Of a stretch of DNA of 64,000 bases, positions 22,024-29,647 are shown piece after piece; the stretch's first letter is position 1; each line of letters opens with the position of its first letter. The DNA is taken from NCBI GenBank assembly GCA_050246315.1, contig JBFWWG010000002.1, positions 204,711 to 268,710 on the forward strand. Reading direction: 5' to 3'. Below the pieces are notes generated by a model that was given only the letters and a program-made list of their open reading frames with translations, searched no databases and was not told where the DNA came from. The position numbers and the translations under genes were made by a program. This DNA is from Nitrospiraceae bacterium (GTDB taxonomy: Bacteria > Nitrospirota > Nitrospiria > Nitrospirales > Nitrospiraceae).

Positions 22024-22434
22024 ATGGATATTCCCGCAACGATCGTGAAGGTCGTCAAGAGCGATGAGCAATGGCGGCAATCGTTGACTCAAGAGCAATA
22101 TCAGGTGCTGCGCAAGGAAGGCACCGAACGGGCCTTCGTCAACGCCTATCATGATAACAAACAGGCCGGCATCTATCACTGCGCCGGGTGCGACCTCCCC
22201 CTCTGGTCCTCCGAGCAGAAGTACGACAGCGGCACCGGCTGGCCGAGTTTTTGGCAGCCGATCGCGCCCCACGTCGTCGCCACCAAGACCGATTTTCACC
22301 TGCTCTATGCCCGCACGGAGGTCCATTGCGCGCGATGCGACGGCCATCAAGGGCATGTCTTCAACGACGGCCCCAGGCCGACGGGGCTCCGGTATTGCAT
22401 CAATTCGGCCGCGATCAAGTTCGTCCCGTCGTAG
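22024..22434 (+). CDS. msrB: Peptide-methionine (R)-S-oxide reductase
   Basis: [44 protein letters not shown]. Confidence 0.95.
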
Positions 22435-22449
22435 AAGAGGGGCAGAAAG

Positions 22450-22572
22450 GAGATGAGAAGTCTTATTCAGGGCCTCATTCCCTGGCGATTAGGAAAGGTT
22501 TTCGTGGCAACGCCAAATTATTGAGACTTGGCGGCTCGACGAGCCCCAAACATTGAATCCCGACCCCATTTA
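22450..22572 (+). repeat. ~125-bp element copy 1 (family R)
   Basis: Aligns with 22877-22998 and 27443-27569; ends ...TGAATCCCGACCCCATTTA. Confidence 0.75.
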
Positions 22573-22742
22573 TTCGACCCCCGGATCTCATCCTCGACGA
22601 CGGTCAGGTACTCGCGAATGGCGTCCTGGATGTTCTGAATAGCCTCCTGCTCCGTCGCGCCTTGGGACCAGCATCCAGGCAGGCCAGGAACCGAGACCGC
22701 GTAGCCTTCCTCCGATTTGTGAAGGGCGATGCGGTATTTCAT
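22518..22742 (-). pseudogene. hicB: HicB-family antitoxin, C-terminally disrupted, no HicA partner
   Basis: MKYRIALHKSEEGYAVSVPGLPGCWSQGATEQEAIQNIQDAI; the frame runs into the family R repeat after EDEIRG. Confidence 0.7.
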
Positions 22743-22876
22743 GGTGAACCTCTTTGTGGCAAATCCATCTTGGCCGCCGTTGCGAGGCAATGCTTCGCTT
22801 GCGGGCCGACTTGAGGACAGTGTATGTATCCATCCAGCGAATGTCCAGGCCAGATGGCCCCTGTGTGGTGTTCGCA

Positions 22877-22998
22877 AGCGGTGTGGGGAGGTTTAGTGAG
22901 GGCTCTAGTTCATGGTGAATAGGGAGTGTTTCCGCGAGGGCGGACTATTGAGTCCTGATATCTCGACGAGTCCCAAACAATGAGTCCCGACCCCATTA
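22877..22998 (+). repeat. ~125-bp element copy 2 (family R)
   Basis: TATTGAGTCCTGATATCTCGACGAGTCCCAAACAATGAGTCCCGACCCCATT. Confidence 0.7.
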
Positions 22999-23005
22999 CT
23001 ATCAC

Positions 23006-23082
23006 TCTTCAACGACGGCCCCAGGCCGACGGGACTCCGGTATTGCATCAATTCGGCCGCGATCAAGTTCATCCCGTCATGA
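23006..23082 (+). repeat. Duplicated 3' end of msrB (att-like direct repeat)
   Basis: 23006-23078 matches 22358-22430 at 71/73 nt and encodes [24 protein letters not shown]. Confidence 0.9.
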
Positions 23083-23159
23083 AACTCAGAATGCACGTCG
23101 TCGAACGTAGTCATGCAGTGATACGTTCCCTATCCATGACGGTTCGTGACACTCTACCC

Positions 23160-23361
23160 GTTTGATGCACAGAGTAGATGGACGAGAACACACGACAGCA
23201 CTCTTGCGCCCGCGGCGGGGTGAAGCCACGACCGGCTTGATGGGATAGCACCTTATCCATATTCCGACTCCACATTCTCAGCAAGCGACGCCAGGATATG
23301 AAACACTGTCGCCCAGGCCGAAGGCGGCATGAATTTCCTCCACCCTTGCCAAATTGCTCAT
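23160..23361 (-). pseudogene. Decayed SnoaL/NTF2-like gene (cassette remnant)
   Basis: MSNLARVEEIHAAFGLGD, frameshift, ILASLAENVESEYG*, then PRRGR; follows the attC with a GGAGG RBS; 3' boundary approximate. Confidence 0.5.
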
Positions 23362-23394
23362 CTCATGTCGCCTCCGTGGTAACAGATTCTTGGC

Positions 23395-23454
23395 GCCCAA
23401 CGGTGGAGTTAATTTGCGGCGCGTAGTGCCGTCGACTTCAACGACTTGTTAGAC
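23395..23454 (-). mobile_element. Integron attC site (60 bp)
   Basis: Minus strand: GTCTAAC-aagtc-GTTGAAGT-cgacggcactacgcgccgca-AATTAAC-tccacc-GTTGGGC, giving RYYYAAC...GTTRRRY with L boxes and canonical spacers; 27 bp after the SIR2 gene stop. Confidence 0.85.
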
Positions 23455-23481
23455 CCCACTGATTGCGGGGCGCTACTCCCG

Positions 23482-26400
23482 TCACTCTCGCATGCCGCAC
23501 CTCCGGAAGTATTCACTTAGTCGCTGGTATCGGGCATCTTGCGCAAGCTGTGGCGCAGCTTGCACGATCTCGTCCAAACATTGCCCCAACTCTGGGGGCG
23601 CCCACTGTTGATCGCCAATCACAGCATCTAACAGACGCAGAGCATCTGCCGGGAATCGTGCGGACAACCCTGATTCGTGCAGTCGATGTACGACGTAATG
23701 TGGATGTTCAATGGGTTGCAGCCAGTCTTGCACCGCAGTCAAAGCAGCGGGAAATTCAGTTCGGGCAGCAATGATCAGCCGGGTCAATGACTCGCCGATT
23801 CGCGGCGTGGCGAGGTTGCGGGACTTGGGCCAAACGTGTTGCCAGAACGGCTGGACCCGGTTCTTCCAATAGTCCTCGCGCTGGTCGGCGGCTCCTTCTA
23901 GGGCCTGAGACAGCGCCTGTGCGCATTCTTCCAGCCCTTCTTGAGGCAGCGCTCCAATCGCAGATCGGAACTCATCCACGGTGTAGCCCTCGGTCGGCCC
24001 GAGCGCTGCGTAAGTCAGGAAAGCTGCGAACTGCTGGCGGTCTTCGCCTAGGTCAGCGTAGTAGTTTGCGCTCTCCAGGAACTGCGGTTTGAACGCAATC
24101 AGCAAGGGCTGATACAAGCGTGGCGACCACAGGAAACCTTCCCACACGGCTTTTGCTTCAACCGGATTGCTCCAACTGAACAGCGGCAAGAGGTGTTGCT
24201 CGGCCCAAGCGCGATCAACGCGGAAGATCGCGATCAATCGCGAACCCAGCAGCACTCGGCCGTGGCGGAACCGATCCACCTGCACATCGCAGATTTCCGT
24301 GAAGAAGGGCTTGATGTCGGTTGGAAGCTGATCGTTGTCGTTCGGATTGCGTTTGAACCAAAGGTTGATCAACGCCTGCGTGACATGCCCGACCGGATGA
24401 TTGATGGCTTCGGTAACAGACTGCTCAATCGGTTCCCCATTGCGAGTCATCCCGGTGCCTGCTTCGAGTGGCAGGGCCAGAACTCGGTGGCACAGGTTCA
24501 ACAGAATTTCCTCGTGCAGATTGATCGACTTTGAAATGGTCTCAATCCACCACGTCACACCGTGGGCAATCTCCTGAAGCACGGCGTCGGGCATGGTCTG
24601 TACCAGAGGCGCGGCGTAGCGCCACATACGCTGAACCTGTTTCCCATTGCCCCATGCATACAGTGCATCACTCCAGCGACTTTTAAGCCAATTTCCCTGC
24701 GCAGCCAAATCAGCGAGAGCGAACAAGCAATTCAAAGGGTGCTTTTTGCAGACATCACGCCATGTGTCCTCGTGGAACGGCCGCCGTTCGGGTTGTGGCT
24801 TTGTAAGCCATTGAACGAGTTCACGCCGCTTTCGAGGTGCGATGTCGACATCCCGGCTTTCTTCATAGTCTGGATCGCCAGTGCCGCTCATCCAGTGGGA
24901 AAACTCGTCACGCTCGTTGGCTGCCACCTGCCATTGCGGGTAGGCATTGGACAGTTCCGCCAAGCGCGCCGCTGCGGGTACCCCCAGGGCGAGGTCCGAG
25001 GCATTCAATTTGGCCAAATGTAGCCAGACTGAACGAGCCACCAAGTCTTGCCACCGTTCCGGTCCCAGATCATCCCGGTACATCTCGCGCGGCGGGCCGG
25101 CCAAGATGGCGGCCTCCAGACGTTCCTGAGCGGCTCCTGCCAATTGGCGCCCCTGCAGAACGAACAGTCTGAACACCTCCCGCCCCGTATCGGTGGACCA
25201 CAGCCACCAGGCGCCATCGGCCAGCAGCCAATCCACCCACTGCTCGGGTGCGATGCACGCCTCCTGGCTGGCAGCAAACAGGGCCAGGCGCTTGAAGGTG
25301 GGATACGGCAACTCGAACCAGGCCTGGGCAATCCGCCTCGCACGAGCACTGTCATTACCGCGAAGCGCCAGCCACGCATCGCGCAGCAATTCGATCAGGC
25401 TCACCCAGTCGCGGAAACCCCGGTTCTGCCAGTGTGGGGTAATGGACGGTAGATCCCAGTGCGATCGGTCGCTGCGGTCGTCGGCCTCACCAAGCTCGCG
25501 CAACAAGTCCAGCGCATCACGTAGCAGTTGCTGAAAATCCTCCAGCAGTTGCGGCAAGGCGGATGTCCAGTGCTCGCCGGCAAGGTCGCGCAGGGCCGAA
25601 TGCACGTGATTGGCGACCAGCACCAGCTCCCAATCCACCAGTTGCCGCAAGCGCGTGGGTTCGCCCGTGTTCTCTTCCTCGTCGCCCCAACGAAACGGCT
25701 TCTTCAAGGCCACCTGGGGGGCGAGCAGCTCACGCAACTCCAGGCGCAGCGTGGTGGTCAGCCCCTCCCGCTTCAGCCGACCTTTCCATTGATAGAGATC
25801 GGGATCGTGCCACACTTTTTTCACCCGGCCACTGAGCAGCAGACGCCACAGTGTGCGCATCAAGGGGCCAGGGATGGCCTTGGGCGCCTGTAAGCGGATT
25901 TCATCCCGTTCGGCGGTCTTGCCGTCACGCTCCAGCAAGGCAAAGCGGTCCAGTTCGTCCTCGATCAGCCGCGGCCAGCGGTCATGCAACTGGCCGCCAC
26001 GTTGCGCGATCCAGATGACCAGCCGCGGGTCATCCAGATGGCGCGTGAGCCAGCGGGCCAGATGAACCATCACGTCGTCCCACTGGCTGCCGGTGACGCC
26101 ACCGGAGGCCAGCAGCATCGGTGGCGCGCGGTCATAGGGCGCTGGCCGGCGAATCAGGCTGAAACGCAATTTGGCGTCTGCCTCGTCGCGTGACGGCACG
26201 CCGAAGCGAGCCAGATCGCTGTGCTGAAAGCGTTCGTCCGAGAAGGCCTCCAGCAACCAGTCCAGCGAAGGGACGGGGTTGAAGTCGGCAAAACGTCTGG
26301 CCGGCAGTCCCGATTTGTCCGACAAGGCCCACAACATCCGGCCGACGAAATCGTCTTGTTGCGTGCTTGCCGAAGGCCGTGCCAGGGCGTGGCTGACGAC

Positions 26401-27312
26401 GATGCGCTCCTTGCCCAGGACGCCGTCGCGGTAGGTGTCCGCCCAGGCGTGCAAGGTTTCATGGAGTGCCGAATGGTCATGACTGCCAGTGGGTACTTGG
26501 TAAAGGATGGGCGTGACGCCCTTGGCTTCCCACTCGATGGTCTTGCGGTGTTCCTGCCCCGGCTCGCAATCGCCCAGCGCCCAGGCTTGCGGCGTGACTT
26601 CGCCCAACATCCGGTCGGCGGCCAGCGCATCCATCATGTAGCGCAACACCGGATCGTTGATGCTGTAGCCCACGAAGCAGACCACGTAGTTGCGGAACAG
26701 CTCGCTGACAAAACGGGCGGCCCAGCGTTCGGTGAGGTAGGCCAGGCCGAAATCGCCGCTGGTGACCACCAGCCGGTTCAGGGCCGTGTCGTCCTCTTTT
26801 TCGGGCAGCAGGCCGTGCAGGTAGACCAGCCCGTTCCAGCGGCTGTTCTTCGGGATCGGCAACATCGGCGCGGCATAGGCCTGGAACGCTTGGCCTGTGC
26901 GCTTAGCCGCCGTATGAAACACGCGGTCGAAGTTGGTGGTGACGAGCCGCAGCGCGCCGGCGCGGCTGCGCGCCAGCCGCAACAGTGCCGCCTGCGTATC
27001 GGTGGCACCCTTGCGGCGCAACTGGGGTTTCAGTGCCTGCGCCAGTGCACGGCGGACGGCCAGCCGCTGCCCAGGCAGGCGCTGCTCTAGCCGGTCGAGC
27101 GTGGCGTCGAACTGCCAACGGTCGAATGCCTCGCGCTCGATGTCCGAGAGCGCTGTGCTGTTCAGCTGGTAGATTTTCTCCACCAGCCCCTTGAAGTCTG
27201 GCAGGCCGGCGGGGTACGAAATGCCCGCGCCGCAGAAAAACACCACGCGACCTTCCTCGTGCGCCTGCAAGAGCGCATCCGGAATATCGGGGCCGTAGGT
27301 GATGAATTGCAT
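23482..27312 (-). CDS. dsr1: Anti-phage defence-associated sirtuin, Dsr1-type (SIR2_2 + DUF4020-like)
   Basis: VFFCGAGIS, LVTTNFD, LVYLHG, DFGLAYLTERWA, FVGYSINDP SIR2 motifs; long helical C-terminus with AINHPVG and WEGFLWSPR; 1276 aa. Confidence 0.85.
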   Translation of the reverse strand: MQFITYGPDIPDALLQAHEEGRVVFFCGAGISYPAGLPDFKGLVEKIYQLNSTALSDIEREAFDRWQFDATLDRLEQRLPGQRLAVRRALAQALKPQLRRKGATDTQAALLRLARSRAGALRLVTTNFDRVFHTAAKRTGQAFQAYAAPMLPIPKNSRWNGLVYLHGLLPEKEDDTALNRLVVTSGDFGLAYLTERWAARFVSELFRNYVVCFVGYSINDPVLRYMMDALAADRMLGEVTPQAWALGDCEPGQEHRKTIEWEAKGVTPILYQVPTGSHDHSALHETLHAWADTYRDGVLGKERIVVSHALARPSASTQQDDFVGRMLWALSDKSGLPARRFADFNPVPSLDWLLEAFSDERFQHSDLARFGVPSRDEADAKLRFSLIRRPAPYDRAPPMLLASGGVTGSQWDDVMVHLARWLTRHLDDPRLVIWIAQRGGQLHDRWPRLIEDELDRFALLERDGKTAERDEIRLQAPKAIPGPLMRTLWRLLLSGRVKKVWHDPDLYQWKGRLKREGLTTTLRLELRELLAPQVALKKPFRWGDEEENTGEPTRLRQLVDWELVLVANHVHSALRDLAGEHWTSALPQLLEDFQQLLRDALDLLRELGEADDRSDRSHWDLPSITPHWQNRGFRDWVSLIELLRDAWLALRGNDSARARRIAQAWFELPYPTFKRLALFAASQEACIAPEQWVDWLLADGAWWLWSTDTGREVFRLFVLQGRQLAGAAQERLEAAILAGPPREMYRDDLGPERWQDLVARSVWLHLAKLNASDLALGVPAAARLAELSNAYPQWQVAANERDEFSHWMSGTGDPDYEESRDVDIAPRKRRELVQWLTKPQPERRPFHEDTWRDVCKKHPLNCLFALADLAAQGNWLKSRWSDALYAWGNGKQVQRMWRYAAPLVQTMPDAVLQEIAHGVTWWIETISKSINLHEEILLNLCHRVLALPLEAGTGMTRNGEPIEQSVTEAINHPVGHVTQALINLWFKRNPNDNDQLPTDIKPFFTEICDVQVDRFRHGRVLLGSRLIAIFRVDRAWAEQHLLPLFSWSNPVEAKAVWEGFLWSPRLYQPLLIAFKPQFLESANYYADLGEDRQQFAAFLTYAALGPTEGYTVDEFRSAIGALPQEGLEECAQALSQALEGAADQREDYWKNRVQPFWQHVWPKSRNLATPRIGESLTRLIIAARTEFPAALTAVQDWLQPIEHPHYVVHRLHESGLSARFPADALRLLDAVIGDQQWAPPELGQCLDEIVQAAPQLAQDARYQRLSEYFRRCGMRE

Positions 27313-27442
27313 TCCTTGTGTTTTCTATCCAATACGCGCGTGCATTCGAGCGACTGAGAGCTCAGTCGGTCGAACACTCCCATTGAACGGCGCCGTGAAG
27401 CGCGCCGACCTCGCCCACGTGATTAGGCGTCGAGCGAAGCAG

Positions 27443-27569
27443 ATGCAGGGTCGGAGGTCTTAATCAAGTCCTATCGCCCTGGTGAATTGGAAATGTTTTC
27501 GTGACATCGGCAGATTATTGGGTCTTGGCGTCTTGACGAGCCTCGGAAAATGACTACCGCCCCCATTTA
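27443..27569 (+). repeat. ~125-bp element copy 3 (family R)
   Basis: GGGTCGGAGGTC...TTATTGGGTCTTGGCGTCTTGACGAGCCTCGGAAAATGACTACCGCCCCCATTTA; ends are roughly inverted repeats. Confidence 0.7.
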
Positions 27570-27575
27570 ACCATG

Positions 27576-27623
27576 CAGTTGTTTCAACTGGGTTTTGACG
27601 TCATAATGCGAGTTGTATAGGAT
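27576..27623 (+). promoter_or_regulatory. TA-module promoter with palindromic operator
   Basis: CAGTTG-ttt-CAACTG (27576-27590), then TTGACG-17 bp-TAGGAT. Confidence 0.5.
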
Positions 27624-27649
27624 CTTAGCCCTTTAAGGGGGAGGACGAT

Positions 27650-27850
27650 ATGTCGACGGCGGAACGCATTTTCAAAGAAGCACAGAAACTTCCCGATAGG
27701 CTAGCGGAAGAGGTACTGGATTTTATCAAGTACATTGAACTGAGGCACGGACTGAGAGACCGACTCACTGAAGAACTGAAACGGGCGCAGGAACCGGCCA
27801 TGCGCCATGTGTGGGACAACATCGAAGACGAGGTTTGGGATGGCGTGTAA
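27650..27850 (+). CDS. DUF2281-family antitoxin
   Basis: LPDRLAEEVLDFIKY and acidic WDNIEDEVWD tail; GGAGG RBS; overlaps toxin start. Confidence 0.8.
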   Translation: MSTAERIFKEAQKLPDRLAEEVLDFIKYIELRHGLRDRLTEELKRAQEPAMRHVWDNIEDEVWDGV

Positions 27851-28178
27851 GCCCGGCGATCTTGTTTTGATTCCATTTCCGTTCTCCGATCTGCAATCGA
27901 CGAAGAAGCGCCCTGTAATGGTCTTAACCGCACCGGATCGACATGCCGACTTCATTGAATTGGCCCTCACTTCGGTCCCGCAGCAGACCCACGCCCTTCA
28001 AGTTGATTCAGCCAGCATGACGGAAGGGATACTCCCTAAACTGTGCTGGATCAGGTTCGACAAAGTCTTCACCCTTTCCGAGAGCAGCATCATCAAAACC
28101 TTTGGTAAATTATCCTCACAGACGTTGCAGAGCGTGTTGCAAGGACTCTGTTCTGTCGTGGGATACGGTCCCAGATAA
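27840..28178 (+). CDS. mazF: PemK/MazF-family toxin
   Basis: GDLVLIPFPFSDLQSTKKRPVMVL...IRFDKVFTL. Confidence 0.85.
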   Translation: MACKPGDLVLIPFPFSDLQSTKKRPVMVLTAPDRHADFIELALTSVPQQTHALQVDSASMTEGILPKLCWIRFDKVFTLSESSIIKTFGKLSSQTLQSVLQGLCSVVGYGPR

Positions 28179-28205
28179 CCCCGATTCGACGATGTCACCA
28201 CCGCT

Positions 28206-28257
28206 TGCCTCCCTGCTCGCGGTTTCTTCACGAACCGTCACGAATAATGTGGACTAC
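28206..28257 (+). mobile_element. Truncated MITE (family A) right end
   Basis: TGCCTCCCTGCTCGCGG...TCACGAACCGTCACGAATAATGTGGACTA; overlaps the hydrolase stop codon. Confidence 0.65.
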
Positions 28258-29393: not shown

Positions 29394-29405
29394 GCTCGTG
29401 GCTCC

Positions 29406-29647
29406 TTAGCGCGCATTATTCATGAACGCTGTTATTGCAATTGCGGATTCGCTGCTGGGCACCCATTGCTCCAAGATTGCAATGGGTCCCGGCCTGCGTG
29501 CGGAGTTTCAGCACGCAAGAGAGCGGGCTCGCCGCTCGGTCGGTCAACATACTGTTTCAAGTATGCCTCCCTCCTTCGCGGCTCCACGCGCCCGTCTCGC
29601 GACGCGACCCCACAATTTCGCGACAAACCGTCATGAATAATGCGCGC
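29406..29647. mobile_element. Complete MITE (family A)
   Basis: Perfect 17-bp TIR GCGCGCATTATTCATGA (29409-29425 / 29631-29647); internal core shared with 63179-63498. Confidence 0.85.

Follow-up and report, generated by a model that had tools for sequence, protein, structure and literature searches.

A window of 64,000 nucleotides from a Nitrospiraceae bacterium was analysed (assembly GCA_050246315.1, contig JBFWWG010000002.1, positions 204,711 to 268,710). The Lon protein of the host shares 99% identity with that of one Nitrospiraceae bin and 70-75% with those of Nitrospira species. The minus strand of this window carries dsr1, a gene for a large SIR2-domain protein assigned to the anti-phage Dsr1 family, and directly behind it a site with the architecture of attC, the recombination site of integron gene cassettes. 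The original prediction, made from the letters of the window, had read the two as one unusually large defence cassette delivered by integron recombination. Loci are denoted below by L numbers, other genomes by G numbers and contigs of the host genome by C numbers. Four features carry the reading:

23401..27374, minus strand: whole Dsr1 integron cassette (very probable), 3974 bp, from the TT of the upstream core site G/TTCGAC to the G of the downstream core site G/TTGGGC
27313..27374, minus strand: putative cassette leader, 62 nt from core site to ATG, with the inverted repeat CTGAG..CTCAG and a ribosome-binding site
23482..27312, minus strand: dsr1, predicted protein of 1276 amino acids (aa) with an N-terminal SIR2 NAD-degrading (NADase) domain and a sensor region of about 1000 aa
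23395..23454, minus strand: attC of the Dsr1 cassette by covariance model (matches to models R1 and R2), 60 nt, core motifs intact, L stem eroded

The dsr1 gene and the attC behind it

The minus-strand gene at 23482..27312 is identified from its sequence as full-length dsr1. Its product scored 2115.3 bits against the NCBIfam Dsr1 equivalog NF041818 (curated cut-off 1400), with residues 1-1270 aligned on model positions 1-1263, and 2431.8 bits against the PADLOC Dsr1 model PDLC02183. The window copy is one intact long open reading frame of full size (1276 aa, compared with the 1263 positions of the family model). Pfam returned SIR2_2 alone, at residues 123-269, and the comparison with solved structures gave weak matches to small SIR2 NADases only (best E 4.4e-4). 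The motif GAGIS (residues 28-32), N127 in TTNFD and H166 in LHG align to conserved positions of the SIR2 NADase KomC (8zsf). The His mutated in entry 9xvc, "KomC(H146N)", is taken to be the one aligned with H166, going by the entry title only. A Dsr1-type anti-phage sirtuin had been predicted, and the full-length match above the NF041818 cut-off agrees with this, as do the PADLOC model and the SIR2 motifs.

The name Dsr1, or DSR1, reportedly stands for defence-associated sirtuin 1 and is that of Gao et al. in 2020. By analogy with the family, the SIR2 domain would degrade NAD+ once the long C-terminal region sensed a phage component, and the phage would be starved. In the part of the study drawn on here, DSR1 guards Bacillus subtilis against phage phi29, with a transient drop in NAD+ and a culture that does not collapse (10.1101/2021.12.14.472415).

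The attC starts 27 nt past the dsr1 stop codon, in the orientation of a cassette. Read on the minus strand, it is composed of R'' GTCTAAC, a 5-nt spacer, L'' GTTGAAGT, a 19-nt centre, L' AAATTAAC = (A)AATTAAC, a 6-nt spacer and R' GTTGGGC. The inverse cores GTCTAAC (23454-23448, minus) and GTTGGGC (23401-23395, minus) fit R'' RYYYAAC and R' GTTRRRY, respectively. All 60 of 60 positions were placed without a gap in the covariance model (CM) alignment, where GTT-G-AAGT stands opposite AATTAAC with one bulged base. This L-box base is a G on the top strand and a C on the bottom strand, and the identical bulge letter is found in the array attC at C1:512691-512754. Gene, boxes, spacers, distance to the stop codon and orientation were all located as the original prediction had given them.

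Two self-built covariance models, distinct from that of IntegronFinder, were searched. R1 was made from seven sites with 13 base pairs (four from this genome near integrases and three flanking dsr1 relatives elsewhere) and R2 from 18 sites; both exclude the window and its close homologues L028 and L009. The same core motifs served in part to choose the training sites. Two MAFFT alignments, A1 and A3, put the L' arm in the wrong place and did not enter the models, and in alignment A2 three pairs after the bulge fit only four of seven rows, which weakens R1. Because calibration was shortened, the E-values of both models are rough.

With filters off, R1 matched the 64-kb window at exactly 23395-23454 minus with 32.4 bits (E 1.2e-5); the next match had 13.3 bits and no other fell below E 0.7. 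R2 gave the same site 35.4 bits (E 4.5e-6), followed by a match of 13.7 bits. The attC was the sole significant window match, and the covariance-model check proposed with the prediction came out in its favour. Genome-wide, the window attC, at C2:228105-228164, had an R1 E-value of 8.2e-4. In that scan 150 of 2524 first-look candidates were scored, and among those scored there were 12 matches at E <= 1: the window attC, three sites in the C1 array, two in the C8 array, four at C2:426871-428719, one on C5 beside an intI fragment and a lone one on C13. By this sequence-and-structure model, 23395..23454 is an attC. The Rfam scan of the window returned two tRNAs only and is uninformative on attC.

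Cassette boundaries and linkage in relatives

The segment 27374..23401 is very probably an integron gene cassette made up of the 62-nt leader, one intact dsr1 and its own attC, as judged from comparison with related loci. Since homology across genomes starts at the G/TT core and ends in the attC, the segment is read as a cassette by descent. On the 5' side, the leader is conserved in six relatives (L009, L014, L017, L029, L030 and L032; alignment A5), in which GTTAGAC or GTTAGGC lies 56-63 nt 5' of the ATG; the upstream core of the window is GTTCGAC at 27375-27369. Mean pairwise identity among the seven sequences was 27% (chance level) over the 60 nt 5' of the core vs 64% over the 40 nt from the core onward. 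Without L029, which has an indel, identity from the core onward was 65-90%. On the 3' side, similarity spans the stop codon, the 27-nt linker and R'' and is lost past R', beyond which the relatives all have unrelated sequence (A6).

Two further features adjoin the cassette on either side:

27369..27428, minus strand: decayed attC, as read by homology, of the preceding cassette, with R'' GCCTAAT, R' GTTCGAC and part of the L'' arm gone
23257..23394, minus strand: remnant behind the attC, with GGAGG, ATG and a 27-codon frame

The R' of the upstream decayed attC forms the 5' boundary of the Dsr1 cassette. This site has an exact 18-nt match (E 0.003) to a genuine attC of the same genome, C2:427424-427498, with the R'', L' and R' boxes aligned; about 15 nt of the L'' arm are gone and AAT stands instead of AAC. 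The original prediction had not mentioned this upstream site. Set against the definition of an integrase-less cluster (at least two attC sites within 4 kb and no intI nearby), one site is found by covariance model and the other, 27369-27428, only by homology to the genuine attC. Read in this way, the Dsr1 cassette has an attC-derived site on each side and would form part of a degenerate cluster without an integrase. Downstream, a decayed gene with a ribosome-binding site had been predicted to follow the attC. The GGAGG, the ATG and the 27-codon frame are in place, but no relative of 23257-23394 was found in the genome or in the fetched loci. By eye, the last ~25 nt of this remnant are like the 3' end of a hairpin site behind a methyltransferase gene in the same-genus genome G007. 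The remnant may be the leftover of a following cassette.

In total, 28 loci with Dsr1 relatives of 51-89% protein identity were compared. R2 found an attC directly behind dsr1 in four of the 28 loci (L014, L017, L028 and L029), with 42.8 bits in L028, and remnants were recognised by eye in three more: a decayed site in L009, R'' only in L030, and R'', spacer and R' in L032. The suggested check of dsr1 homologues for a following attC is positive for these loci. In L017 and L029, a full attC also terminates in the upstream core. The L-box letters of the dsr1-linked attCs vary with pairing kept: in alignment A8 (seven sites) 86.8% of cells were paired vs 22.8-39.3% with slid partners, and four of six L-helix pairs had changes on both sides. 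A8 leans towards the model because it was fitted to it. The host and the seven relatives span five phyla by their record titles: Nitrospirota, Planctomycetota, Thermodesulfobacteriota, Fermentibacterota and Pseudomonadota.

Some details of the relatives were noted separately. In L030 (6859-6874, a Methylocaldum replicon) the attC behind dsr1 ends after R'' and unrelated sequence follows. In L032 (6864-6883, a gammaproteobacterial bin) R'' runs straight into the 6-nt spacer and R', the picture that loss of the entire hairpin would give. A strict motif-plus-fold heuristic, applied to the 28 loci, returned two sites only and was discarded as too strict. The dsr1 copies of L028, L032, L029 and L042 (G030) are broken, with stops in frame or a split gene. 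One of these pseudogenes, without attC, occurs in a genome of the host's order.

The genome encodes two full-length, stop-free integron integrase (IntI) genes, at C1:515191-516135 and C8:84930-85862 (462 bits vs a TIGR02249 cut-off of 265), and sites of attC architecture adjoin both. Neither gene is in the window or near the attC on its contig. The statement that no integrase is in view holds for the window, but not for the genome, in which the suggested search for intI elsewhere recovered these two intact genes.

The integron parts of the genome are otherwise as follows. C8:83079-85871 (L039) is a complete integron with a divergent intI, in which cassettes one and two code for candidate defence proteins of PADLOC, PDC-S15 (FRG domain) and PDC-S35 (CAP12/Pycsar-type TIR domain). 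A second integron, C1:505909-516420 (L037), has intI on the cassette strand with a transposase-like frame between, and contains a cassette of ~3.4 kb for a 1060-aa protein without a Pfam or PADLOC match. The ESM Atlas features of this protein point toward FTP/M36-type metalloprotease-like clusters (0.92), as a lead only. In addition, there are four to five attC sites without an integrase at C2:426164-428719, an intI C-terminal fragment at C5:132231-133040, 600 nt from an attC, and a lone attC at C13:15347-15407.

Erosion of the site and competing explanations

Several results weigh against the cassette reading, among them the folding of the downstream attC. The minimum free energy (MFE) of its bottom strand is -8.3 kcal/mol (z -0.45 vs shuffles) and that of its top strand -5.3 kcal/mol (z +0.96). 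When the AAC and GTT of the R boxes were forced to pair, the canonical bottom-strand fold had -4.9 kcal/mol and was not the MFE structure. For comparison, the canonical folds of same-genome array attCs range from -16.0 to -20.6 kcal/mol, that of L014 has -19.8 and that of the nearest homologue, L028, -10.5 kcal/mol, and the canonical shape is the MFE in all of these. Compared with L028, the window attC has lost one L-stem pair (G.A in place of G-C) and kept another by a double change (T20-A41 for C20-G41). A stable canonical bottom-strand hairpin is absent from the window attC. The original prediction had called the attC canonical and had made folding of the bottom strand a condition; on folding the prediction failed, and what stands of the term canonical is the core motifs, the spacers, the bulge and the covariance match, but not the hairpin, which is weak, or the stem, which is eroded. 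The site is read as an attC by descent with an eroded stem, and since it folds weakly, this copy of the Dsr1 cassette is probably stranded.

Other points on the same side concern detection, linkage and expression. R1 and R2 are built on only seven and 18 sites, partly selected by core motif, with shortened calibration. The upstream decayed attC was undetected by either model at E up to 10, and at this threshold the slots of G007 (L043) and G006 (L044) and the surroundings of the broken dsr1 of G030 (L042) likewise gave no attC match. No attC was found behind dsr1 in 20-21 of the 28 relatives, by R2 and by eye. The phylum labels depend on binning, because most relatives are metagenome bins. A quick tree was drawn from 21 of 29 sequences, with broken or partial copies left out and the careful search unfinished. 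The attC-bearing genes in it all fell within one well-supported 13-row clade that includes attC-less genes, and did not form a single clade of their own. Among five relatives' genomes, whose assemblies are fragmented, no Dsr1 cassette was found beside an integrase: in four of the five it lay on another contig than every IntI match over the cut-off, and in G005 it lay ~155 kb from a truncated IntI match.

A simple consensus scan of the minus strand before dsr1 found no sigma-70-like promoter, which counts on the same side. As no array promoter (Pc) is nearby, expression of dsr1 must come from the leader or from read-through. RNA-library contigs from four libraries of four studies contain parts of dsr1 at least 99% identical, at low depth, which is no proof of transcription, and uncovered parts carry no meaning; one contig spans the attC (23308-23585) and one spans the start codon and core site (27290-27511). 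The stretch is contained in 14 DNA runs, all of them possible sources and so not counted as independent.

The cassette lies in a slot between two core genes, for which two more features are listed:

22435..28253, no strand assigned: variable island, 5.8 kb between the convergent core genes msrB and DUF900 hydrolase gene
27650..28178, plus strand: DUF2281 antitoxin-like and PemK/MazF-like toxin genes, on the opposite strand to dsr1 and upstream of the decayed attC

Besides the Dsr1 cassette, the island contains a HicB-like gene, a 3' fragment of msrB that is displaced, and a MazE/MazF-like pair. The toxin-antitoxin pair matches the Pfam families PF10047 (E 2.4e-4, under the curated cut-off) and PF02452 (40 bits vs a cut-off of 23.1), and a promoter-like site lies at 27595-27623 on the plus strand. 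Within the genus, the slot of G006 is empty (91 bp). G007 has a different content of 1162 bp between window positions 23256 and 28254, which includes a class I S-adenosylmethionine (SAM)-methyltransferase gene (L043, 385-1320) with GTTAGAC 35 nt before the ATG. Behind the methyltransferase gene, a hairpin (z -2.0) ends in GTTAAGC, with no R1 or R2 match. This unit could represent a further decayed cassette. One RNA-library contig has the G007-type joint.

It is proposed that IntI would have cut the Dsr1 unit out of an array in circular form and integrated it at an attC belonging to the small integrase-less msrB/DUF900 cluster; alternatively, recombination in the flanking core genes could have imported the cluster in one piece. 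The attC sites on either side would then have decayed, leaving dsr1 as a fixed defence gene. The downstream attC keeps its R boxes, spacers and bulged base and has lost most of its stem energy, so that the copy is probably fixed or rarely moving. Beyond this locus, the wider proposal is that integron integrases have carried a full-size Dsr1 cassette of ~4 kb between at least five phyla and that it was repeatedly dropped outside arrays, where its attC decays. This is put forward tentatively, as a close call that leans slightly to doubt.

Among the competing explanations, the one that survives best is that IntI never acted here, the slot content having been imported by homologous recombination in the flanking core genes with its integron signature inherited. 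It is a serious possibility, though on the doubtful side. The edges of the variable region coincide with the stops of both convergent core genes, strains of the genus differ in slot content (G006 empty, G007 with the methyltransferase gene), the G007-type joint occurs in an RNA-library contig alongside the window allele, and the duplicated 73-nt msrB 3' end marks another kind of site-specific insertion. However, the best counterpart of the upstream decayed attC is found in the same genome, at C2:427424-427498, and their 18-nt match points to local integron activity. The G007 content, too, starts with GTTAGAC 35 nt before an ATG, which would fit a slot that is itself a small array of cassettes. 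Import by the flanks also concerns the last step only and is compatible with a cassette origin. Delivery of a large cassette-borne NADase gene by integron recombination, as originally predicted, is sustained as regards the 3974-bp cassette by descent, but not as regards IntI action at this exact place.

It is unlikely that the cassette is still active, with the genome's own IntI enzymes folding and recombining the weak 60-nt site and dsr1 movable into the C1 or C8 arrays. The R'' and R' cores, the 5- and 6-nt spacers and the L-box bulge are intact, as are two IntI genes in the genome; T20-A41 compensates C20-G41 of L028; and the window gene is intact, with the copies in L028, L032, L029 and L042 broken. 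Set against these points, the canonical fold of -4.9 kcal/mol is 11-16 kcal/mol weaker than those of array attCs and is not the MFE, the upstream partner site is decayed, and capture drops as cassette size grows, according to the part of a recent study used here (10.64898/2026.03.17.712381).

The two weakest explanations concern the 60-nt site itself. A fortuitous resemblance to attC, or a plain transcription terminator, is close to refuted as its explanation: the site folds no more stably than shuffled sequences and false positives are expected among lone attC calls (PMC4889954, as far as that source was drawn on), but its covariance scores lie 19-22 bits above the next window match, it stands in the same place behind dsr1 in L028, L014, L017 and L029, where the changes are compensatory, it is not followed by a T-run, and nothing is listed there by the terminator scan. 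Ownership of the attC by the downstream neighbour unit, suggested by the short frame with a ribosome-binding site after it, is hardly credible, as the orientation is that of the 3' attC of dsr1 and the 27-nt linker and R'' are conserved with dsr1, with unrelated sequence beyond R' in every relative; the prediction had named such ownership as a point that would refute it, and the prediction came through.

Further repeats were observed in and near the slot. The last 73 nt of msrB occur twice, at 22358-22430 and 23006-23078 (97% identical), separated by 575 bp with the HicB-like antitoxin gene, and in G007 msrB is joined to the second-type 3' end only. The arrangement resembles that left by a small site-specific insertion in the msrB 3' end which carried a replacement end along. 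A repeat of ~116 nt is found in three copies, one of them partial (22455-22570, 22946-22997 and 27441-27567), all of them at this locus; one copy borders on the HicB-like gene and another precedes the MazE-like gene. This repeat was considered as an attC and ruled out, having no core sites and no copies elsewhere in the genome. At 29400-29647 there is a 250-nt element with 44-nt terminal inverted repeats and many matches in the genome, genus and family at 80-96% identity. It is a repeat similar to a miniature inverted-repeat transposable element (MITE), and the overlying 97-codon frame is probably not a gene.

Comparison with known systems

The window protein belongs to the same family as the Dsr1 of Garb et al. 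by its full-length equivalog match, with the SIR2 motifs kept (10.1101/2021.12.14.472415, as far as drawn on here). Phage-triggered NAD+ depletion would be expected, by analogy, as the shared mechanism. The difference from the known family is the carrier, here an integron cassette.

Defence genes in integron cassettes are already in print (2024-2025); a Dsr1 cassette of this size is a new case of the same kind. "Dsr" and "SIR2" are absent from the main text of 10.1101/2024.07.02.601719, 10.1101/2024.07.02.601686 and 10.64898/2026.03.17.712381, of which the supplementary tables may list Dsr1, and a literature text search for Dsr1 plus integron returned no paper with either word in its title or abstract. 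In the passages used here, Kieffer et al. describe phage-defence cassettes (BRiCs) in mobile integrons (10.1101/2024.07.02.601719), and Darracq et al. describe defence cassettes of sedentary chromosomal integrons, with systems that are smaller than elsewhere, "streamlined" and never of more than two components (10.1101/2024.07.02.601686). The single-gene anti-phage packaging of leader, reading frame and attC appears to be shared between these cassettes and the Dsr1 cassette.

The comparison with attC clusters that have no integrase (CALINs) and with lone attC sites concerns detection. As given in the parts of the two method papers used, Cury et al. 2016 (PMC4889954) set a 4-kb limit for attC clustering, double the length of the biggest cassettes on record at that time (~2 kb), and dropped lone attC sites, and IntegronFinder 2 by default reports clusters from two attC sites upwards (Neron et al. 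2022, PMC9024848). Like a CALIN, the window locus has attC-bounded content far from an integrase in a genome with complete integrons. However, just one of its two sites can still be detected, so the default setting of at least two attC sites would miss it, and its attC-to-attC span of ~3.9-4.0 kb is at the clustering limit. With a 4-kb limit and at least two sites required, censuses would therefore tend to miss such cassettes, as far as the published methods indicate. At 3974 bp, the window cassette is about double the length quoted for the biggest known cassettes in 2016.

If the wider proposal of movement among phyla were true, integrons would deliver large defence genes into ordinary defence islands, and the rule that cassette-borne defence is small would be in part a detection artefact of the 4-kb clustering limit and the discarding of lone attC sites. 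As to the fate of such cassettes, the window locus shows a small integrase-less slot with eroding attC sites, in which the gene comes to resemble any defence-island gene. Relaxed settings around large known defence genes may show the share of integrons in the traffic into defence islands.

Overall, what sets the Dsr1 cassette apart is how large it is, that it is spread across phyla and that it is probably stranded. In contrast to the streamlined systems of Darracq et al. (10.1101/2024.07.02.601686, as far as that source was consulted), the window protein is of full size and the cassette is ~4 kb; a 1276-aa sirtuin of normal length, in a cassette with ends defined by cross-phylum comparison, is a clean counter-example to the census conclusion that only compact systems are carried. 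A published case in the same situation as the window locus is found among the homologues outside integrons reported by Kieffer et al. (10.1101/2024.07.02.601719, in the part used here): one of them has a pseudo attC and lies in a small defence island, and its genome contains an integron and a CALIN as well.

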